From Desulfuromonadales bacterium (GTDB lineage Bacteria; Desulfobacterota; Desulfuromonadia; Desulfuromonadales; SZUA-540), in contig JAWSUS010000001.1 of NCBI GenBank assembly GCA_033549025.1, positions 171,685 to 235,684 of the forward strand: a stretch of DNA of 64,000 bases, read 5' to 3'. This document shows, piece by piece, positions 1 through 57,837 of this stretch. The notes below the pieces were generated by a model that saw only the letters and a list, made by a program, of their open reading frames with translations, was not told where the DNA came from and searched no databases. How positions within the stretch are numbered: position 1 is the stretch's first letter; each line of letters begins with the position of its first letter. Made by a program: the position numbers and the translations under genes.

Positions 1-341
1 TCCTCGAGGATGGCGGAAGGGTGAATCCAGGCTCCTTCCATCACCCCTTTGGGCTCCGGATGAACGACCTTCAGGCGGGTCAGAATCTTGGCAAAGGCCA
101 GATAAGGGTTCTTGACCACCAGCAGGTTGAGTCCCGGCATCTCTACACCAGGCCCCACAATGACAGCCGAGGCACGGGTTGCCTTGGCCTTGGCGGCGTA
201 TTTGGGGTTGGCGAGAAAAGTGATATCGCCTTCACGGGCGGCATCGATGGGCGCGACCTGGCCGATCCGGATCGATTCATCCCCGAGAACAGAGCCTCCA
301 ACCAGATCGGCAAGCTCTCGAAGAGTTGCCGTCGTCGCCAT
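1..341 (-). CDS. lpxD: UDP-3-O-acylglucosamine N-acyltransferase, 5' part (runs off window start)
   Basis: Manual translation from ATG at 341: MATTATLRELADLVGGSVLGDESIRIGQVAPIDAAREGDITFLANPKY...KNPYLAFAKIL...IHPSAIL, the typical LpxD N-terminus. Follows bamA-skp as in the canonical operon. Confidence 0.93.
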   Translation of the reverse strand, partial: MATTATLRELADLVGGSVLGDESIRIGQVAPIDAAREGDITFLANPKYAAKAKATRASAVIVGPGVEMPGLNLLVVKNPYLAFAKILTRLKVVHPEPKGVMEGAWIHPSAILE

Positions 342-897: not shown

Positions 898-3141
898 TTA
901 AAAAAACCGACCGATGGAAAACTCAAACCGTGAACGATCCTCATCCTCTTTCGGATCCAGATTGTAGCCCCATTCAAGCCGCAAAGGCCCCATGGGGCTG
1001 TTCCAGCGAATTCCCCAGCCGGCGCTGTAGCGCATGCTGGAGAAATACTCTTCATCCTTGCTCCAGGCGTTGCCGATATCGAAGAAGAGCAGACCCTTAA
1101 AGCCGAGGTCCCGAATGAGCGGGAAGGTATATTCGGCATTGAAGAAAGTCTCTTTTTCGCCGCCGATAAAGTCACCGTTTTCGTCCTGCGGACCGACTTC
1201 CCGCGTTGAGAAGCCCCGCAGGGTGTTGATGCCGCCCAGAAAGAACTTTTCGTCGATGGGGATCTCTTCGGTGCTGCGCAGCTTGTGGACATAACCGACC
1301 TGCCCGTGGAGAGAGAAGACCGAACCCCATTTCCAGGGGAAGAAGACCCGGTGGTCGGCGATGTACTTGCTGAAATACTCTGTCCCCCCCAGACCGGCAA
1401 TTTCCCAGGAGATCTCCCCAAGGTGACCGCGGGTCGGATCGGGCCGATAGTCCGTCGTATTGAGGGAAAAGGAGGAAAAGAGGGACGACAGCGTGGAGCG
1501 GCCAGCTTGATCCTGCCAGTAAATGCTGGCAAAGGGATCGATATCGTATATTTCTTTCTCTTCGTAGCGATAGACGAAAAAGAGGCGGGTGTTTTCGGTC
1601 AGCGGGATGCCGAGCTTGATATCGCCCCCCGTCGTTTTTTTGGAGAAATCCGTATATTCGCGGTCGGTGTTATAGATGTCGCCGCCCAGGGCGAAATCCG
1701 TATCGAGAAAATAGGGGTCGAGGACCCCGAACTGATAGGTGGTCGTCGTGCCCCCCAGCGAAGCGGAGAGGTTCATGCGTAGCGCCCTCCCCAGAAAATT
1801 CTCCTGGGAAACGGAGCCCTGGGCGATAAAACCATCGACGGACGAGTAGCCGCCACCGATACTGAAAGTACCCGTCGGCTTCTCCTTGACCTCCACGTCC
1901 ACATCGAGATGAGCTTCGTCCTTACCCTTGCTGGTAGAGACATTCACCTCTTCGAAAAAGCCGAGGTTGTTGATCTTGCTCCGGCTCGACTTGATCAGGC
2001 TGGCGTTGTACAGCTCGCCTTCGAGCAGATGCATTTGCCGCCGGATGATCTTGTCCCGCGTCCTGGTATTGCCGGTAATGCGGATGCGGTCGATGCTGAC
2101 CTGAATCCCCTGCTCGATATCATAGAGAATATTGACCAGGCGCTCCTCATGATCAAGCCGGGTAACGGGCGAGACATTCACGTAGGCATAACCCTGATTG
2201 GCGTACAGATCGTTGAGGACCGTCACGTCGCCACGCAGGATTTCGCGACTGAAGACATCGCCCTGTTTGAGTTTGAACAGAGAAAAAAGTTCCCCTTTTT
2301 CGCGAAGGAGATCCCCCTGCAGCCTGATCTCGCCCACCCGGTACTGCTCGCCTTCCTCGATCTCAATCAGCACGTCCATGTACTCTTTGTCGTCGCTGAA
2401 GGTGATCTGGGGCTGCATGACCTTCACTTGGACATAGCCCTTGTTGTAATACTGGTCGGCGATGATTTCCAGGTCGATCTGTAGAACTTCTTCTCGGTAG
2501 GTGCCCCGATCGGTCAGCCAGGAAAGCCACCATTTTTCTTTGGTCTGGATGGCTTTCTTGAGTTCCTTGTCGGTAAAGACAGTGTTCCCCTGCAATTGAA
2601 TATTGCGAACCAGAACTTTCTGTCCTTCGGTGATCTCAAAGTGGACCGTGGCCTCATTGCGCTCGCCCGTTTCCACCCGAGGCTCGATGCGCACCCCGTG
2701 ATAGCCCTCTTCAATATAGGCGTTGCGAATGGCTTCGACGCTTTTCTCCAGAGTCTTGGGATGGAAGATGCTGGCCGAGCGAAAGGTAACCAGGGGGCGC
2801 AGTTTTTCTTCTTTAAGCTTCTTGTTGCCTGAAAAGACGACGCGCCGAACCAAGGGGCGTTCGACCACCCGGAATGAAAGAATCTGGCGATTACCTTCCT
2901 GTTCCAGTTCCGCGGCAATGTCGGAGAAGTGCCCCAGTTTGAAAATGGCCTTGACATCCCGGTCGATCGTCTCGGCGGACACGGTGCTACCGGCCTGAGC
3001 CGAGAGAACGGCCGTGATCGTCGAAAGCTGCACCCGCTGGTTTCCGCTGACGGCTACCTGATCGACCCTGTAATCCTCAGCCCAGCCTGCCATCGGCAAC
3101 AGAAACAACAGGACAAGTCCGATCAGCACTCTTCTGGTCAT
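898..3141 (-). CDS. bamA: Outer membrane protein assembly factor BamA
   Basis: Signal peptide (start chosen at MTRRVL), POTRA repeats (GN.. motifs), FFLGGINTLRGF loop motif, C-terminal FEFSIGRFF. Confidence 0.96.
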   Translation of the reverse strand: MTRRVLIGLVLLFLLPMAGWAEDYRVDQVAVSGNQRVQLSTITAVLSAQAGSTVSAETIDRDVKAIFKLGHFSDIAAELEQEGNRQILSFRVVERPLVRRVVFSGNKKLKEEKLRPLVTFRSASIFHPKTLEKSVEAIRNAYIEEGYHGVRIEPRVETGERNEATVHFEITEGQKVLVRNIQLQGNTVFTDKELKKAIQTKEKWWLSWLTDRGTYREEVLQIDLEIIADQYYNKGYVQVKVMQPQITFSDDKEYMDVLIEIEEGEQYRVGEIRLQGDLLREKGELFSLFKLKQGDVFSREILRGDVTVLNDLYANQGYAYVNVSPVTRLDHEERLVNILYDIEQGIQVSIDRIRITGNTRTRDKIIRRQMHLLEGELYNASLIKSSRSKINNLGFFEEVNVSTSKGKDEAHLDVDVEVKEKPTGTFSIGGGYSSVDGFIAQGSVSQENFLGRALRMNLSASLGGTTTTYQFGVLDPYFLDTDFALGGDIYNTDREYTDFSKKTTGGDIKLGIPLTENTRLFFVYRYEEKEIYDIDPFASIYWQDQAGRSTLSSLFSSFSLNTTDYRPDPTRGHLGEISWEIAGLGGTEYFSKYIADHRVFFPWKWGSVFSLHGQVGYVHKLRSTEEIPIDEKFFLGGINTLRGFSTREVGPQDENGDFIGGEKETFFNAEYTFPLIRDLGFKGLLFFDIGNAWSKDEEYFSSMRYSAGWGIRWNSPMGPLRLEWGYNLDPKEDEDRSRFEFSIGRFF

Positions 3142-11671: not shown

Positions 11672-13946
11672 CGTTCTTCCTTTTGCTCGGATCTTTATCC
11701 CTCTCCTTAAACGCAGGCTCGGGATAGTCGATGCGATGGTGAAAAATGCCAGACAGTATGCGGTTGAAGCTCTTGGCGATGTTGTGGAGGTCTTTAAGGG
11801 TCAGCTCGCATTCGTCCAGCTGGCCGTCGATAAAAATGTTGTTGATAATCTTCTGCACCATCCCCTGAATGCGGGCCGGCGTCGGATCGGTCAGAGTGCG
11901 GCTGGCCGCCTCCACCGCGTCCGCCAGCATGATCAGGGCCGCTTCCCTCGTCTGCGGTTTGGGCCCGGGATAGCGGTATTCGCGCTCGTCCACCTGCTGC
12001 ACACCGGGGTCTTCCTTGCTCTTGGCCTTGTCATAGAAAAACTTGATAAGGGCGGTGCCGTGATGCTGGCGGATGATATCTACCAACGGATCACCCAATT
12101 TGATTTCGCGGGCCAGCTCGACACCGTCCTTGACATGGGCCATAAGGATCAGGGCACTCATGGAAGGAGCCAGCTTGTCATGCTTGTTCTCCAGGTTGCC
12201 GATATTTTCCACGAAGTAGAGCGGTTTGCGGATCTTGCCGATGTCATGGTAATAGGCGGCCACTCGGGCCAGCAGGGGATTGGCGTTGATGGCCTCGGCG
12301 GCAGCCTCCACCAGGTTGCCGACAATAATAGAGTGGTGGTAGGTTCCCGGCGCCTGAATCATCAGCTCCCGAAGGACCGGCGTATTCATGTTAGCCAGTT
12401 CCAGCAGCTTGATATCGGTCGTATATTTAAAAAGGTGCTCCACCAGCGGCACGGTGCCCGTCACGATCACCGCGCAGAAAAAGCCGCCGGCCAGGCCGAA
12501 ACCGAGTTTGTAGAGAAGCTGGATATCCATGGCCCGGCCCGCCATAAAATGCAGGGCCAGAATCATCAGGACATTGGCGATGGAGACCCACATACCGGCC
12601 CGATAGAGGGTCGTACGCTGCTTGCACTGGCGCACCCAGTGAGCGCCGGTAAGGCTGCCGACCAGGGTGTACAGGGTAATAAAGAGGCTGTTACCGAAGA
12701 GCAGGCCCATCAACACGGAAAAGACCAGCGTGAAAATCAAGGCGATTTCCGAGTTGAGAACGATGCGGACCAGAATGGCGCCGACGGCAAAAGGAAAGAC
12801 ATAGTAGTAGGTTGGCGACTCGATGTACGGAAAGGCCGTTTCGAGAGCGGTGGAAATAAAGATGGCGATCTTGATCAGGAGAAAAAGGCCCAGAAAAGCC
12901 GCCGTGAGAAAGAGAAAATCCCGTGTTCTGGGGCGGTATTTACGGATGTTGACCTGGGCGAAGCTGTGGGCGGCCACGATGAGCAGGGCGATCCCCCCCA
13001 ACATGCCGAGTCCCATGCGAAAAACGTTCAGATCTCCCCCAAGTTCACGCAGTGCTCGAAGTTTCTTGATCTGGTCGCTGGTAACCTTCTCTCCCTCGCG
13101 CACAATCATCTCGCCCTTTTTCATCTGAAAAAGAACGGGTTTGACCTCCTCGGCGGCCTTGCGTTTTATCGCCTCGGTCTCACTCTTGTTGAAGGTGAGG
13201 TTGGGACGCAGCAGTTTCTGAATAACGGCGAAAACCAGGGTTCGGTCTTCTTCCGACACACCCTCAAGGGTTTTGAGCTTGGAGCGCGCGAAATCCTGAG
13301 CCTCTCCCAACCCGATCACCTGATCGAGATTTTTCCCGGGCGCTTCCTTCTGAGTCTCCAGGTCGCGAATGACAATCCCCTTCTCCCGGTCCGCTTCAAA
13401 GAGCTGCAGATTACCGACGACCTGACGGTTCAGGGTCTGAATAAGGATGTTGCGCAGGGGAACCTGGTACACCTCCAAGGGAGAAAGGCGCCCCAGGGCG
13501 CGCACTTCATCGGCGGTCAGACTAACACCGACCAGCCCTTCGACCTCCTTGAGCAGGCTCTCGAATTCGCCCTCTTTGCCTTTGGCGCCCTGAATGGCCT
13601 TCAAGGCCTGCAAAAGGCGATCAAAAATCTCCTGGCCGGCCTTTGGGTCAAAGTCGTACAGAGCCAGGGTGGCATCATGGGCTTCCTGGCGCTTTTTCTC
13701 GGTCAACTCCAGGTCGGGGATCAGCATGTCCCGGGGCGCTTTGATATCCCGCGAAGCGATATCTCCCGGCGCATAGTAATCGGGGACGAATCCTCCCTTG
13801 GGAATAATGACCACGGTTAGCAATACGGCCAGCGTAAAGAGAAGCAGCAGACGAACATAGCGCTCCTCCAAGGAAAACCGGAATCCTGTAGTCAGCCCCT
13901 TCGCCTTTCGGGGGGTCGACTCGTTTTTACGTTCGTTTTTAGTCAT
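11571..13946 (-). CDS. 7TM-HD (HDIG) membrane phosphohydrolase, PgpH-like
   Basis: N-terminal TM, large extracytoplasmic domain, TM bundle, APGTYHHS, YYHDIGK, QHHGT, YPGPKPQTREAA, MLADAVEAA. Confidence 0.9.
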   Translation of the reverse strand: MTKNERKNESTPRKAKGLTTGFRFSLEERYVRLLLLFTLAVLLTVVIIPKGGFVPDYYAPGDIASRDIKAPRDMLIPDLELTEKKRQEAHDATLALYDFDPKAGQEIFDRLLQALKAIQGAKGKEGEFESLLKEVEGLVGVSLTADEVRALGRLSPLEVYQVPLRNILIQTLNRQVVGNLQLFEADREKGIVIRDLETQKEAPGKNLDQVIGLGEAQDFARSKLKTLEGVSEEDRTLVFAVIQKLLRPNLTFNKSETEAIKRKAAEEVKPVLFQMKKGEMIVREGEKVTSDQIKKLRALRELGGDLNVFRMGLGMLGGIALLIVAAHSFAQVNIRKYRPRTRDFLFLTAAFLGLFLLIKIAIFISTALETAFPYIESPTYYYVFPFAVGAILVRIVLNSEIALIFTLVFSVLMGLLFGNSLFITLYTLVGSLTGAHWVRQCKQRTTLYRAGMWVSIANVLMILALHFMAGRAMDIQLLYKLGFGLAGGFFCAVIVTGTVPLVEHLFKYTTDIKLLELANMNTPVLRELMIQAPGTYHHSIIVGNLVEAAAEAINANPLLARVAAYYHDIGKIRKPLYFVENIGNLENKHDKLAPSMSALILMAHVKDGVELAREIKLGDPLVDIIRQHHGTALIKFFYDKAKSKEDPGVQQVDEREYRYPGPKPQTREAALIMLADAVEAASRTLTDPTPARIQGMVQKIINNIFIDGQLDECELTLKDLHNIAKSFNRILSGIFHHRIDYPEPAFKERDKDPSKRKNVEDSDREPPKEAKDKEAGPAKGGSEDLKRLGMS

Positions 13947-52605: not shown

Positions 52606-54462
52606 TCATTGCAGAGTAAAAGTCCAGACGTCACTTTCGCTGACAGCACCGTGGCTGTCCTCGGTGACGACTTTCCAGTAATACGTCCCCGGCGCCAGAC
52701 CGTCAACCTGATATTTCACGATCTCAACAGGTGTCGGCGTGACGCTTCCCGAACTGCCACCGCCCCCACCTCCGCCACAGGAAACCAGCAACCAACCAGC
52801 CGCCACCAGACATAGCAGCAACGATATCGCGCCATGGCGTCGTTTTGACCACAGGCCCGCGCCCAGCAAGAGTCCGGTCCCCAGTAAAAGGATCGTCGAT
52901 TCAACAAGTGACGTGTCAACGTAAGTATACGGTGAAAATTCAGCATTTTCAGCATAAACAAGGGTTTCTGTCAAAGGGTCGCCATTGGCATCCGTTCCCC
53001 TCGCCCACTCGAACACCACCGAGGAACCGACAAGATCAGCGCCATTTGCCGGGGCGCGAAGCTGGGCGGCGACGGGGGGAACGTTGAGCTGCTTGTAGGC
53101 GGCGAGGGCGTTGACCAGGCCGTAGCCGTAGTAATTATCTGGACCTGCCTCGCCGAGATCCGTTGCCCCGCCTGTCAGGGCCCTTTCCAATTCAGCGGAG
53201 GAAGCGTTGGGAAAAGCATCGAGCAACAAGGCCATGACACCTGCCACATGAGGCGTGGAGAACGAGGTGCCGGAGTAAAGCGCGTACGGAAAAGAAGGGT
53301 CGTTGGTAGAGGTCTCGATATATTCGCCGGGGGCGGTCAGCTCGGGATAGATGGAGCCATCACAGGTCGAAGGCCCGACAGCGCTGAAGGTCGAGACGAC
53401 CAAGGTCTTGCTGACACTTCCCACAGCCACCGACTCCGGGTAATTTGCCGGACTGATGTCACCCGTTTGTTCTGTATTGCCTGCGGCAAAAACCACCGCT
53501 ATCCCAAAAGACTTAAGCGCGCTGACAGCTGGTTGGAAGTCAAGAATACATCTATTGACTTCGTCATCAAAGCCCCAGGAATTATTGACAATATCGGGAG
53601 CGTCATCGGTTGAATCTACCCCGTCAGGGTTAAGCATCCATTGAAAGGCCAGGAGTATCTTGGAGTTATCCGCATTCCCCTCGTCATCGAAAATTTTAGC
53701 TGCAATCCACTGGGCCGCCGGAGCAACACCAATACCGTTGTCACCCAAGATAACACCAGTGACAGCCGTTCCGTGCCCTGAAGCTTCAGGATCTGCGGGA
53801 TACAAGGGGTCATACGGAAGTGTCGTGTTTTTATACGGGTCAAACCAGCCGCCGTTTTCACGCCACTTGGCTGCCAGGGCCGGATGCGTCACATCAACGC
53901 CGCTGTCCATCACGCCCACGACGACACCTTCCCCTTCGTATCCTTTGGCCCACAAATCCGGGACCTTTACGGCGCCCAGGTTATCCCAGGCACTAGTCAT
54001 GGCAATGGCCTGAGGCGCAGGCGAACTCAGGCGAATGACCTCGTCATAGCGGATGGATTCCACCTCGGGCAGTGCGGCGAGGTCTTCTACTTGGGCAGCG
54101 GTCAACTGCACCGCCAGCGCGTTGATAAGCCAGAGGGGACGCTCTCCCGTTACCCTCTGCTGACGGAGATAGCGGATAACGTTCTGCTGGCTGCCGACGG
54201 CGTGGCTCCGGAGATAACGGATGAGTTTGGCGCGGGCGGCGGCCCGCTCTTCACATCGCCTCATCCCGCGCACCGCGAAAGACTCTACCTCCGGCGGCGC
54301 CGCAAATTGGATGATGACCGGAACAACCTCGTCCGCGGCTGTGGATTTCAAAGTACCCTGAAGCCTTTGATCCAGAACCGCTCCGGAGGCGCCGCCGATC
54401 ATGAAGCTCGTCATGAAAAAAAGAAGCAGCAACGCCGGGCCACTGTATTTTTTTAAATTCAT
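52606..54462 (-). CDS. S8 (subtilisin-like) serine protease with C-terminal membrane segment and Fn3-like domain
   Basis: Signal peptide, propeptide, triad VMDSG / GHGTAVTG / GTSFSTPHVAG, oxyanion AAGN, GPDNYYGYG. Confidence 0.93.
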   Translation of the reverse strand: MNLKKYSGPALLLLFFMTSFMIGGASGAVLDQRLQGTLKSTAADEVVPVIIQFAAPPEVESFAVRGMRRCEERAAARAKLIRYLRSHAVGSQQNVIRYLRQQRVTGERPLWLINALAVQLTAAQVEDLAALPEVESIRYDEVIRLSSPAPQAIAMTSAWDNLGAVKVPDLWAKGYEGEGVVVGVMDSGVDVTHPALAAKWRENGGWFDPYKNTTLPYDPLYPADPEASGHGTAVTGVILGDNGIGVAPAAQWIAAKIFDDEGNADNSKILLAFQWMLNPDGVDSTDDAPDIVNNSWGFDDEVNRCILDFQPAVSALKSFGIAVVFAAGNTEQTGDISPANYPESVAVGSVSKTLVVSTFSAVGPSTCDGSIYPELTAPGEYIETSTNDPSFPYALYSGTSFSTPHVAGVMALLLDAFPNASSAELERALTGGATDLGEAGPDNYYGYGLVNALAAYKQLNVPPVAAQLRAPANGADLVGSSVVFEWARGTDANGDPLTETLVYAENAEFSPYTYVDTSLVESTILLLGTGLLLGAGLWSKRRHGAISLLLCLVAAGWLLVSCGGGGGGGSSGSVTPTPVEIVKYQVDGLAPGTYYWKVVTEDSHGAVSESDVWTFTLQ

Positions 54463-55820
54463 AGAACCCTCGCAAGGAAACCTCTGGTTTCAACCGGGGG
54501 AGGAATTGCGATCCGTCGTGAGACGGAAGGCTTTGGTTGATAGGTGTAGCCGTCAGCCTGATGCACGATCCGGCAGTGCCGGTAAGATATGCCCTGGATC
54601 GTTCCGAAGGCCGTCGCGATATTGAATCTGCCGCTGGTTCTAACGGCGACACGGCCCAAGTGCAGACCGGCTCTTTTGCCGGAGGGAACGACGGCTTTAA
54701 CCTGGTCACCTGTGCGAAACCCCTGCACGAAGCGAGCACTCTTGGCGCTGGTGCGGGGGATGCCGAAGCGATCCATACGGCACATCTGACGGCTGCCCCG
54801 TCCCGTGGCGGTGATGGATAAAGGGGCCTGGTCGGGTTTCAGTCGCACGGTATCTCCAGACTCACCCACACATGCCGCGTCAATCCAGTGGGCCTTGGGA
54901 TAGTGCAGCCCAGTGCGGTTGTACTTGGTCCGACCGCCAGACCAGAAAGAGACGGGTAGCCCCAGCGTTTTAACCGCATGGCCGATGGCGTAGCGGGTGG
55001 CGTTGACGGCAGCGGAATCATTGAGCGGTCGCTTTAATTGACCAAGGATCTTTTGGAGCTGTTCCGGCCGGTCAGCCAGAAATTCCTGCACGGGCCGATT
55101 GCCTTTGCGTTCGTTGCAGTCCCGACACGACAGGGTAAGATTACTGATCCGGTTGGAGCCGCCTTTGCTTCTGGGAACGACATGCTCGATCTCCAGCGGC
55201 ACATTCTCGTCCCCACAATAAACACAGCGTCGCTGCCATTTTTCCAACAGATACTCGCGAACCTCGTAACCAAATAGCGTCCCTTGCTGGTATTCCACGC
55301 CACTAATCTCCGGGTTCTCGGCTTTCTGCAAATCAAACCTCACCGTTTCGACCGCAACGCTGGTGATCGGGCAGAGTCGTTGCAGCCGCTTTGCCAGCGT
55401 CAGGACGTTGTTGACTCTGGACTGCAGTGACGGTGGCAACCAGCCTTGTGGCCGAGTCCGGTTATCGAACCGGGGCGCACGGTAGCGGGTCTTGCGATGA
55501 CGCCGTGAACGCCGGATCGCCCGACGGCTTTCGAGGGCTTTTTTGATGGCTGCGCCTCGGTGGTGCAGTTCCGCGCACCAGAGAACGGTATTGGCGGAGT
55601 CGTGGTTGCCTACGAGGGCAACACCGGTGGTCTTGCTGCCCGGATCGAGCTTGAGTTCGACCGATTGCACATCCCCGCCGGTGCGGTGCTTCAAAACAAT
55701 AGTGAACGGGTAGCGGCGATACACCGCCGCCTTTCCGTTTCGCAGGAGCATTCTGGCCCGTGCCGGCGAGCAAGGGGAAAGGGGTTGTTTGGTATTGTCG
55801 AGTACAAAGACTCTCTGCAT
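54459..55820 (-). CDS. iscB: RNA-guided endonuclease IscB (453 aa)
   Basis: PLMP domain (VFVLD...PLSPCSPARAR...PFTI), RuvC-I LDPGSKTTG, Arg-rich bridge helix RRAIRRSRRHRKTRYR, RuvC-II VETVRFD, HNH CVYCG...IEHVVPRSKGGSN...CRDCN, RuvC-III HWIDA. Confidence 0.96.
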   Translation of the reverse strand: MQRVFVLDNTKQPLSPCSPARARMLLRNGKAAVYRRYPFTIVLKHRTGGDVQSVELKLDPGSKTTGVALVGNHDSANTVLWCAELHHRGAAIKKALESRRAIRRSRRHRKTRYRAPRFDNRTRPQGWLPPSLQSRVNNVLTLAKRLQRLCPITSVAVETVRFDLQKAENPEISGVEYQQGTLFGYEVREYLLEKWQRRCVYCGDENVPLEIEHVVPRSKGGSNRISNLTLSCRDCNERKGNRPVQEFLADRPEQLQKILGQLKRPLNDSAAVNATRYAIGHAVKTLGLPVSFWSGGRTKYNRTGLHYPKAHWIDAACVGESGDTVRLKPDQAPLSITATGRGSRQMCRMDRFGIPRTSAKSARFVQGFRTGDQVKAVVPSGKRAGLHLGRVAVRTSGRFNIATAFGTIQGISYRHCRIVHQADGYTYQPKPSVSRRIAIPPPVETRGFLARVL

Positions 55821-56097
55821 CGTTGTACCTTTTAAGTACCGGGTTACCCCGGCTTTCTCGCCTTGCGGCGGTAAAGTCTCCCTCGGCAAGGTTGTGAAAC
55901 GGTTTAACGTAGACGGCACCGACGCTTTACCCAGAACGTCTTTTAACCGGCTACCGCAGAGCCTGGAACTGGGAGGGCATTCCAGGGTGCCTATTTCGTT
56001 TCCAACGTAGCCCGTCAGCGATCTCTCGCTGGTGGCTGTGCCCGGTCAATCCAGACTTGTTGCTACAAGCCTCTGACTTCAGTCAGGGGTGATTGAC
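54463..56097. mobile_element. Non-autonomous IS200/IS605-family iscB (OMEGA) element, ~1635 bp
   Basis: Bounded by TTCAT (54458-54462) on the left and ...GATTGAC on the right. Near-identical subterminal hairpins CCTCTGGT-TTCA-ACCGGGGG (54481-54500) and CCTCTGAC-TTCA-GTCAGGGG (56070-56089). Contains iscB and an omegaRNA; no tnpA, no target duplication. Right junction uncertain by about 2 nt. Confidence 0.9.
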
Positions 56098-56117
56098 CGT
56101 CTGTGACCTCGCTGTTT
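55821..56117 (-). ncRNA. omegaRNA (HEARO-like scaffold) with predicted 5' guide
   Basis: Scaffold begins GTCAATCACCCCTGACTGAAGTCAGAGGCTTG at 56097. Closing stem GTCAATC/GATTGAC; hairpins CAGCGA/TCGCTG, CTGGAA/TTCCAG, CGCC-GCAA-GGCG, CCGGG/CCCGG; potential CTCCC/GGGAG pseudoknot. Guide inferred as flank 56117-56098. Transcript ends are inferred. Confidence 0.85.
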
Positions 56118-56544
56118 ACGGATTACTATACATTCTACTGCACTGTGCTCTCCAAGAACAGCCATCAAAATCATCTGACCAGGCGATACGGGACATCCGC
56201 TTTGCGATTTAACCGGATTGTTTCCAGCAGTTCGGGCAATTGACCAGTCGTTGGCTCATTCGAATGGCCTTCTTCACCTTCTGAAAAAGTCCGAGCAACC
56301 TCAATACTTTCTCACCCGTTGGGGCATTTCCCCTATGGCCTTTCAGCCAAACGGCAGACAGTTCCTAACCGCCGTCAGAAAAATCATCCTAAAAACCTCA
56401 ACAAAGATCTGTTAAAATAGACCCTGCCTTAAAAAGTTCGCGAATCCCCCCATTTCGACCTAGGGCAAACCCCCTTACCTGAGCATGTGGTCGATCAGCT
56501 AGGCAACCGTGCCTGACAACCCCGCCGAAAGAGCAGATCACCCT

Positions 56545-56560
56545 TGGTGCAGCTCTTGCA
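56545..56560 (+). promoter_or_regulatory. Candidate sigma54 (-24/-12) promoter for the secretion operon
   Basis: TGGTGCAGCTCTTGCA: GG-N10-GC with TTGCA, about 70 nt upstream of the gspF-like ATG. Confidence 0.5.
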
Positions 56561-56628
56561 AACAAGCCTTTCGGCGCTATTATTTCAGGGTCATGCCCCT
56601 TTTTTAATGTAAGTATATTGGCGACATC

Positions 56629-57837
56629 ATGGGCACTTTTCGATGCAAAATAGGGACCGCTGACGGGCGGATCCTGGAAAAAGACCTGGATGCCGCCAGC
56701 AAGGGGATCCTGAAGGAGAGCCTTGAGGATCAGGGCTTCCATGTCTTTCGCATCCAAAGACGCGGGCTGCCCCTCTCAGGGGCCCTCAGCGGTCAGCAAG
56801 GGCGTCTGAGCAGCAGCCGCTTTCTCTCTTTCAATCAGGAATTCCTGGTTCTGCTGCGGGCCGGGCTGCCCATCCTGCAGGTACTGGACACCATCATGGA
56901 GCGGATGGAGTCAGGGCGCCTGCTGGAAATCCTGCGGGAAATCCGCGAGGATGTCAAAGGAGGCAGCTCCATCAGCGAGGCCTTCAACAGATTTCCCACC
57001 GTCTTTCCTTCCCTTTATATCGCCTCCATCCGGGCGGGGGAACGCACGGGTGAACTCCCCGTGGCCATCGAGCGTTTTATCGCCTACCAGAAACGGGTGG
57101 AGGCCATCAAAAGCAAGGTTCGCAACGCTTCTTTCTACCCGATCCTGCTATCGACGGCGGTGATTGCCGTGGTCCTTTTTCTCATGCTGTTCGTCATCCC
57201 CCGTTTCACGCAGGTCTACGCTGATGCCCAGGTAGAGCTGCCCCTGATGACCCGTTTTCTCATCACCGTCTCTCAGGGCATGGGAAAGGCAGCACCCCTG
57301 CTGGTGCCGCTTGTCATCCTGCTGGCTTTCATGGCCCGGGGATTTCTGCGCACCGAAAAGGGATATTGGCTGCGCGACAGGCTCAAACTGGTTCTTCCCT
57401 TTTTCGGTCAGCTTTTTAAAGACTATGCCCTGCTCAGTTTCTGCCGCACACTCGGCACCACCCTGGCCAGCGGCATCCCGGTGGTGCAGGCGATGCAGAT
57501 GTCCCGTGGCACCCTGAATAACCGCCTGCTGGAAGAGCGGCTGAGCCTGGCTGTCCGCCGGGTCCAGGAAGGCACCTCGCTGTCGGAAGCCCTGGAGGAG
57601 ACCGGTTTCTTTCCCAAACTGGCTCTGCGCATGATCGGCGTGGGCGAAACAGGCGGTTCTCTTTCTTCCATGCTGGAGGATGTCGCCATGTATTACGAGG
57701 GCGAGGTGGAAAAGAGGCTCGACCGTCTGACCACCCTCATCGAACCGGCGATGATGATGACCATAGGCCTGCTGATTGGGGCTATCGTCGTCGCCATGTA
57801 CCTGCCCATTTTCCAGCTTGCCGGCACGGCCGGCTGA
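56629..57837 (+). CDS. Type II secretion/type IV pilus inner-membrane platform protein (GspF/PilC family)
   Basis: LLRAGLPILQVL, AGERTGEL, YPILL, GVGETGGSL, LIEPAMM...AMYLPIF. Confidence 0.93.
   Translation: MGTFRCKIGTADGRILEKDLDAASKGILKESLEDQGFHVFRIQRRGLPLSGALSGQQGRLSSSRFLSFNQEFLVLLRAGLPILQVLDTIMERMESGRLLEILREIREDVKGGSSISEAFNRFPTVFPSLYIASIRAGERTGELPVAIERFIAYQKRVEAIKSKVRNASFYPILLSTAVIAVVLFLMLFVIPRFTQVYADAQVELPLMTRFLITVSQGMGKAAPLLVPLVILLAFMARGFLRTEKGYWLRDRLKLVLPFFGQLFKDYALLSFCRTLGTTLASGIPVVQAMQMSRGTLNNRLLEERLSLAVRRVQEGTSLSEALEETGFFPKLALRMIGVGETGGSLSSMLEDVAMYYEGEVEKRLDRLTTLIEPAMMMTIGLLIGAIVVAMYLPIFQLAGTAG

Follow-up and report, generated by a model that had tools for sequence, protein, structure and literature searches.

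The window analyzed here is a 64,000-nucleotide stretch of DNA from a Desulfuromonadales bacterium (assembly GCA_033549025.1, contig JAWSUS010000001.1, positions 171,685 to 235,684), and it contains a 1,635-bp IscB element that lies, at 54463-56097 on the minus strand, exactly between the ribosome binding site and the start codon of a subtilase gene. Read on that strand, which also carries all of the features described in this paragraph, the order is host leader, omegaRNA scaffold, iscB, and host subtilase gene. The host leader, of which the 20 nt at 56098-56117 are taken as the would-be guide, includes a Shine-Dalgarno (SD) sequence, GAGGT, at 56110-56106, followed by the 8-nt spacer CACAGACG at 56105-56098. 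The scaffold (55871-56097) is a full-length, above-threshold member of the HEARO RNA family (Rfam RF02033, model positions 1-211, 134.7 bits against a gathering score of 83), and a covariance model of the omegaRNA 5' end, R1, matches at 56097-56036 with 73.6 bits. The first bases of the scaffold, GTCAA, constitute the right-end (RE) terminus of the element, its 5' end coinciding with the insertion junction, and this end falls in the P1 stem region of HEARO. The iscB coding sequence (54459-55820; ATG at 55820, stop at 54461-54459) encodes 453 residues with matches to the Pfam domains RRXRR (1.6e-74) and HNH (1.3e-13); in phmmer comparisons with IscB proteins of solved structure it matches TbaIscB at 6.6e-49 and OgeuIscB at 3.2e-30, and the RuvC and HNH catalytic columns, Asp59, Glu158, His213, Asn236, and Asp314, are invariant when eight relatives are aligned. 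No tnpA is present inside the element. At the left end (LE), which adjoins the target-adjacent motif (TAM), a match to a second covariance model, R2, marks a subterminal hairpin region at 54476-54504, in which a 6-bp stem is visible. The host gene (52606-54462) encodes a 618-residue subtilase with a signal-peptide-like N terminus (Pfam Peptidase_S8, 4.4e-50), and its start codon with the following two bases forms the TAM, ATGAA (54458-54462), which is host DNA outside the element. The last sense codon of iscB straddles the element end and its stop codon, TGA, is entirely within the TAM, overlapping the subtilase ATG as ATGA.

The boundaries of the element are proven by empty sites. A search of 40 relatives for the 403 bases to the left of the element located them in two congeners, G001 (88% identity) and G002 (78%). 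The subtilase site of G002 reads ...AGCGAGGTCACAGACG joined directly to ATGACTTTAAAAAAATAC, and that of G001 reads ...GAGGCCACAGATG/ATGACTTT, the slash marking the junction; in both, the host GAGGT with its 8-nt spacer abuts the ATG, with neither extra sequence nor target duplication. Because the left flank continues without interruption into the subtilase ATG in both congeners, the element extends from 56097 to 54463 and was inserted without duplication of its target. The original prediction, which was made from the letters of the window, held that removal of 54463-56097 in silico restores an SD, 8 nt, and the subtilase ATG, and this is how the natural empty sites read; the positions that it assigned to GAGGT, the spacer, and two candidate -10 boxes, TAGAAT and TATAGT, are likewise correct. 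It had also anticipated an orthologous empty site in which the leader is joined to ATGAAT. The junction is exact and free of extra sequence, as foreseen, but it reads ATGAC rather than ATGAA: the fifth TAM base is A at the occupied site (54458) and C in both empty orthologues (L012 1907 and the matching base of L013), so that residue 2 of the subtilase is Asn in the occupied allele and Thr in the empty ones. The A may have preceded the insertion or arisen after it. The N terminus of the subtilase is otherwise kept in G001 and G002, and only six in-frame codons lie upstream of its ATG before a stop.

The genome contains one other copy of the element, on contig C2, likewise of 1,635 bp, which sits between AAGGAG with a 5-nt spacer, ACGCC, and the ATG of a transketolase gene. 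The corresponding empty site in G001 and G002 reads ...GCAAGGAGACGCC/ATGAAAAACC, and here the TAM is ATGAA in occupied and empty alleles alike. The two copies are alike from GTCAATCA on the left through ATGAA on the right, in agreement with the ends given by the empty sites, of which there are four in total (two loci in each of two congeners), all indicating TAM-adjacent insertion without target-site duplication. The copies differ at about 22 positions, with 6 synonymous and 11 non-synonymous differences in iscB. Their omegaRNAs differ by two 1-nt indels that compensate each other and are separated by 23 nt (55987-56010, element positions 88 and 111; L002 1595-1618), which shift the register between them while the predicted local fold is kept; contigs from RNA libraries, discussed below, show the form of the second copy. 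Since an RRXRR protein is found in none of three congeners (G001-G003) and HEARO in no more than 2 of the 150 other genomes of the phylum that were surveyed with the Rfam model, the element is a recent arrival, and it has moved at least once within this genome. When the start-likeness of genomic ATGAA sites was scored by a deliberately generous test, 540-789 of 7,585 (7-10% at most) looked like gene starts, and the location of both copies between an SD and an ATG therefore has a probability of at most 0.005-0.011. It should be noted that a second Transketolase_N match (219.9 bits, a 310-residue frame with one in-frame TGA) is present on contig C13 at 11742-12530; it could be a split-type or broken paralogue, and it bears on whether the transketolase next to the second copy is the sole one.

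These features identify the element as a non-autonomous transposon of the IS200/IS605 family and of the ISC/IscB type, with the N/ATGA target that has already been published. The ISC transposons described by Kapitonov, Makarova, and Koonin (2016, PMC4810608) have 5'-GT(CA) ends and insert between N and ATGA without duplication, as was shown there by empty orthologous loci. Three of them, ISC1-1_MA, ISC2-1_HM, and ISC2-1_MS, resemble the present element in the 5'-GT(CA) terminus, in insertion directly upstream of ATGA, and in having subterminal hairpins, and they mostly have no transposase gene, as is also the case here. TnpB elements with the same end and TAM as an ISC partner were also reported there, IS605B-1_MA for example, and such TnpB elements have no need of outside transcription. 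The present element has GTCAATCA at 56097 and ATGAA at 54462, which places it in the ATGA-target ISC subgroup, and both its ends carry subterminal hairpins in place of terminal inverted repeats, as indicated by the LE covariance model and by HEARO P1 at the 5' end. Model R2, which was built from 25 ends and has a 7-bp consensus stem, matches both genome copies (41.2 and 38.8 bits) and 80 related ends.

The closest functional model is the GstIscB element characterized by Meers et al. (2023, bioRxiv 10.1101/2023.03.14.532601). In that system the omegaRNA is located at the right end, its guide lies outside the element so that external transcription is needed, the TAM is TTCAT 5' of the LE with single-base changes abolishing cutting, the element is restored when the excised donor joint is cut, and iscB is biased toward the orientation of its upstream neighbor. 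The element studied here is similar in having the omegaRNA upstream of iscB at the RE, a guide derived from the flank, a need for transcription from outside, a TAM that reads ATGAA on the iscB strand, and no transposase of its own, and also in that two positions distinguish the RE motif from the TAM (here GTCAA and ATGAA). The likeness is one of anatomy and TAM. The proposal that the TAM is the start codon and the guide is the leader is borne out by this comparison, since ATGAA, the reverse complement of the GstIscB TTCAT, is found at both copies, and an IscB guide lies outside the element, 5' of the scaffold. The mechanism originally suggested, with its predicted cutting of empty alleles, would thus be in essence the published one applied to this locus.

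To place the two copies in the context of their family, 23 genome loci and the best 80 metagenome loci, with IscB identities of 46-69%, were surveyed. One covariance model, covering the initial 64 nt of the scaffold, served to locate the 5' ends, and a second, covering the final 65 nt up to and including the TAM, served for the 3' ends; an automatic hairpin-based end finder mis-called many loci, and the covariance model R2 was used in its place. After removal of six loci with duplicate left flanks and three with 30 nt or less upstream (L069, L052, and L057), an SD 4-mer ends 2-12 nt before the scaffold in 30 of 65 unique left flanks, compared with 112 of 907 shifted control windows (p 2e-11), the distances peaking at 4-10 nt; GTCA is present at 61 of the 65 left ends (counted from the list). 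Among 77 unique right flanks, four duplicates having been dropped, the TAM is ATGA in 68, ATGG in 7, and different in 2, so that ATG comes first in 75, and ATGAA is the commonest form (36). Both ends can be evaluated together in the 44 of these 77 that combine a left end and an ATG with no less than 303 nt of downstream sequence. At 18 of the 44 sites the guide has an SD and an open reading frame (ORF) of at least 100 codons starts from the TAM ATG, as opposed to 33 of 1,371 other ATGA sites in the same flanks (p 4e-18); of the remaining sites, 4 have the SD only and 9 the ORF only. Removal of the window element's two copies and one near-duplicate leaves both at 16 of 41 sites (p 7e-16). Chance placement at a start codon was considered and is ruled out by the two of two genome copies, by the 18 of 44 sites, and by the 16 of 41 that remain without the window copies. 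The original suggestion that an ATGA-type TAM biases such elements toward gene starts, for which a genome-wide survey of iscB elements had been proposed, is thus upheld by the ratio of 18/44 to 33/1,371.

The ORFs that begin at the TAM ATG are, to judge from their domain content, real genes. Pfam matches were obtained in 16 of 18 scanned ORFs (those of the 17 SD-plus-ORF sites other than the window and of L032, placed by eye), and 11 of these have a domain that starts no more than 12 residues from the ATG, at profile positions 1-3. The families represented among those 11 include transketolase, sulfatase, an acetolactate-synthase-like thiamine pyrophosphate (TPP) enzyme, LepA, CofD, SDR, IndA-like, ThyA, MerR, and others, and one further ORF encodes a class I Glu/Gln tRNA synthetase. 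The start-codon habit of the family is therefore strong, yet it is not universal. Some of the surveyed loci have peculiarities of their own. The iscB gene of L017 (3001-4156) is a pseudogene with 18 in-frame stops, whose element retains both ends and still precedes a 60-codon ORF; in L015 and L018 the tblastn match crosses one in-frame stop near the C terminus, so that iscB ends earlier. These three loci were left out of the protein alignment because of their in-frame stops. Weak additional matches to the omegaRNA 5' model lie near full elements: L079 (4136-4199) and L080 (4958-5021) each have a second copy about 1.4 kb downstream, and L029 has two opposed matches, at 160-218 (minus strand) and 2159-2217 (plus strand); the extra weak matches could represent neighboring elements or scaffold-only remnants.

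Insertion of the element has moved the host SD 1.6 kb from the subtilase ATG, but the end of the element contains signals from which translation could restart. The original prediction overlooked both of these: an SD-like GAGGG at 54467-54471 (minus strand), 4 nt before the host ATG, and the overlap of the iscB stop with that ATG. On the iscB strand, the order at the LE is iscB, subterminal hairpin, GAGGG, TTCT, and ATGAA; the iscB frame stays open across the terminal hairpin and ends at a stop codon that the target supplies, and in this element GAGGG and the stop/start overlap are both present. Similar signals are found among the relatives. An SD 4-mer ends 3-9 nt before the ATG at 35 of 77 related ends, compared with 76 of 1,361 control positions within elements (p 1e-23), and a frame of at least 100 codons ends in an ATGA overlap at 22 of 77 ends and in a TGATG overlap at 10 (together 32 of 77), the overlaps having been counted irrespective of frame. 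From their position and their recurrence, the GAGGG and the stop/start overlap look as though they stand in for the displaced ribosome binding site of the host.

The promoter of the subtilase gene must be located within the 530-nt intergenic region that extends to a divergent T2SS-F-type gene (56629-57837, plus strand), in which a consensus scan yields three weak sigma-70-like sites on the minus strand. Of the two candidate -10 boxes proposed originally, from which transcription would begin 20-27 nt before the scaffold, both are present where they were placed and TAGAAT (56132-56137, minus strand) is conserved in both congeners. The other, TATAGT (56125-56130, minus strand), is paired by the scan with TGGAGA at a distance of 18 nt (9 of 12 matches) but is not conserved in G001 or G002, and neither a good -35 element before TAGAAT nor sigma-54-like spacing was seen by eye. 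A 119-residue ORF without a Pfam match (56398-56757, minus strand), in the stretch that separates the subtilase leader from the T2SS-F-type gene, overlaps the start of the latter and is therefore unlikely to be a gene. Contigs from four metatranscriptome runs of two studies bear on expression. One of 475 nt (54099-54571) bridges the end of iscB and 364 nt of the subtilase gene. Another, of 373 nt, extends from the scaffold 101 nt upstream, the first 30 letters of these 101 being the reverse complement of the leader of the second copy; if this contig is RNA, the length of that guide is set by trimming of a longer leader and not by a transcription start site 20-27 nt away. A third contig, from run X2, has the same omegaRNA 5' end (the 56097 junction) with a different left flank that ends in GGGAG and 8 nt. 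This is a third site of insertion, present in some related population and once more accompanied by an SD-like motif.

The empty sites show that the element inserted without duplication between the SD with its 8-nt spacer and the subtilase ATG, and its sister copy similarly at the transketolase gene. Taken together with the GstIscB work, the anatomy of the locus suggests what would follow. A transcript from the host-gene promoter would read through the leader into the scaffold, giving an omegaRNA with the host leader as its guide, and IscB with this omegaRNA would recognize the leader followed by ATGAA. This combination exists only in an empty allele, whether excised or never occupied, since an occupied allele has GTCAA next to the leader. 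By analogy with GstIscB, the present element would cut such an empty allele, and repair from an occupied copy would lead to retention or homing. The family survey suggests that start codons may be favored or retained for two reasons: transcription there runs in the right direction, and insertion need not harm the gene. The last bases of the element would provide the host ATG with a new SD, and iscB would end on that ATG in an ATGA overlap, so that ribosomes could start or restart there. Mobilization would depend on a Y1 transposase acting in trans. The genome has six Y1_Tnp matches, one of which is beside a tnpB on contig C8; this locus (approximately 111361-111723, L003) is an IS605-type element in which a TnpB-like ORF overlaps that of a 141-residue IS200-like TnpA. 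C2 and C13 encode two long Y1_Tnp proteins (231 and 277 residues), RAYT-like in size. None of the three has ends like those of the IscB element.

The account as a whole, comprising the identity of the element, its exact insertion at a start codon, the leader-derived guide, retention, and translational restart, is considered probable, but a number of points weigh against it. The natural empty subtilase sites have ATGAC, and because single-base TAM changes abolished cutting by GstIscB, as Meers et al. report, these alleles may not be targets. No transposase partner was identified, and ends like those of the element were found nowhere beyond the two copies by blastn-short with both ends and by the LE model, for which 150 of 1,281 candidates were scored. 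The 11 non-synonymous and 6 synonymous differences between the two iscB genes give no sign of strong purifying selection. In the survey, both of the end-finding covariance models were self-built and the SD test comprised three 4-mers only (GGAG, GAGG, and AGGA). Neither an SD nor a long ORF is present at 13 of the 44 sites. Among sites of all classes, L062, L095, L106, and L077 are inside long ORFs, and L043, L086, L111, and L093 are on 4-nt gene overlaps. An SD is present in the guide at neither of the two further placeable HEARO loci in the 150 genomes of the phylum, a number too small to be of use. At 26 of the 77 related ends there is neither an SD nor a stop/start overlap, and the survey cannot separate a preference in insertion from retention afterward. 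Carry-over of DNA is possible in the RNA libraries, and a contig with the empty joint was not seen in the four runs, none of whose contigs covers the subtilase leader at 56098-56165.

Some of these observations are what would be expected if the gene-start bias were purely a matter of survival, with the transposase taking any single-stranded ATGA(A), low-harm transcribed copies persisting, and the SD-like bases belonging to the transposase recognition structure without any role in translation. The sites inside ORFs, the 13 sites with neither SD nor ORF, and the 26 ends without SD or overlap fit such a scheme, and the end region is indeed a conserved hairpin-plus-foot structure of the kind that a Y1 transposase would read. 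It does not account readily for an SD-like motif that recurs 3-9 nt from the ATG in ends that otherwise differ and whose frequency at this place is about 8-fold that in the interior of the elements (35/77 compared with 76/1,361), or for the stop/start overlap that is often found at the ends that have no SD. We regard it as rather unlikely in this pure form, and it should be recognized that survival as an explanation for retention is compatible with a translational role of the end. The possibility that insertion is polar, turning the host gene off or down, and is tolerated since the genes hit are dispensable or duplicated, is prompted by the 1.6 kb of structured RNA and foreign ORF between the promoter and the subtilase gene, by the likely dispensability of a secreted subtilase, and by the second, split-type Transketolase_N match on C13. 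But both host ORFs are intact (618 and at least 501 residues), relatives of the element precede genes such as those for a class I Glu/Gln tRNA synthetase, thymidylate synthase, LepA, and an acetolactate-synthase-like TPP enzyme, an RNA-library contig crosses the iscB-subtilase junction, and element ends are enriched in restart signals, all of which make polarity improbable. The match between the guide and the 5' leader and ribosome binding site of the host gene also recalls RNA-guided repressors derived from TnpB, which are known from published work, and could mean that a domesticated IscB regulates its host gene in the manner of nuclease-dead TnpB derivatives. That the RuvC and HNH catalytic columns are intact, that two recent copies are located at unrelated genes and are absent from all three congeners, and that the guide match in the occupied allele precedes GTCAA and not a TAM renders domestication very improbable indeed.

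With translational restart retained as part of the preferred account, a more general interpretation of the ATGA branch of IscB is possible, but it is advanced tentatively and with distinctly less assurance than the account of the locus itself. The TAM-side end may be an evolved restart module, consisting of an SD at ribosomal distance or of an iscB frame with a stop taken from the target as ATGA or TGATG, and the TAM may have come to match the most frequent start context of bacteria. Start codons, even of housekeeping genes, would in that case be safe harbors that supply a promoter for the guide, are cheap for the host, and make the element impossible to delete without damage to the gene, and the element would be a small gene drive on the 5' ends of genes.

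Among other IS200/IS605-type elements, IStrons, which combine a group I intron with an IS605-type element, also limit harm to the host gene; they do so by splicing out of the RNA, whereas the present element has no intron and would limit harm by its position before the ATG and by restart. The main text of Kapitonov et al. (2016; one supplementary file lay outside this check) does not link the ATGA target to gene starts and describes no restart signals, and the available portions of Meers et al. (2023), unlike the present survey, report only the bias in orientation relative to the upstream gene, with nothing on start codons, ribosome binding sites, or translation. Within the text available for the literature searched, which also included Goltsman (2022), no statement was found that IscB or HEARO elements are located at start codons or replace ribosome binding sites. 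What is new here relative to that literature is the link of the ATGA target to start codons and the restart signals, the kind of element itself being known. HEARO together with its ORF was reportedly recognized as a mobile element by Weinberg et al. in 2009, who may have named ATGA or GTGA where it inserts, in which case the start-codon link would in part predate what the literature searched shows.

IscB is the transposon-borne ancestor of Cas9, and the habitat of IscB elements and the manner in which their guides are transcribed bear on what RNA-guided cutting first served. The locus described here is a clean natural case, with empty sites in sister species, in which the target motif is a start codon and the guide is the leader of a gene, and in which the element seems to restore the translation signal it has pushed aside. 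Should the restart function prove real, such an end would be a compact natural module for gene-sparing insertion, useful in genome engineering, and for the family itself it would explain both the known bias in the orientation of iscB and the residence of these elements before essential genes.

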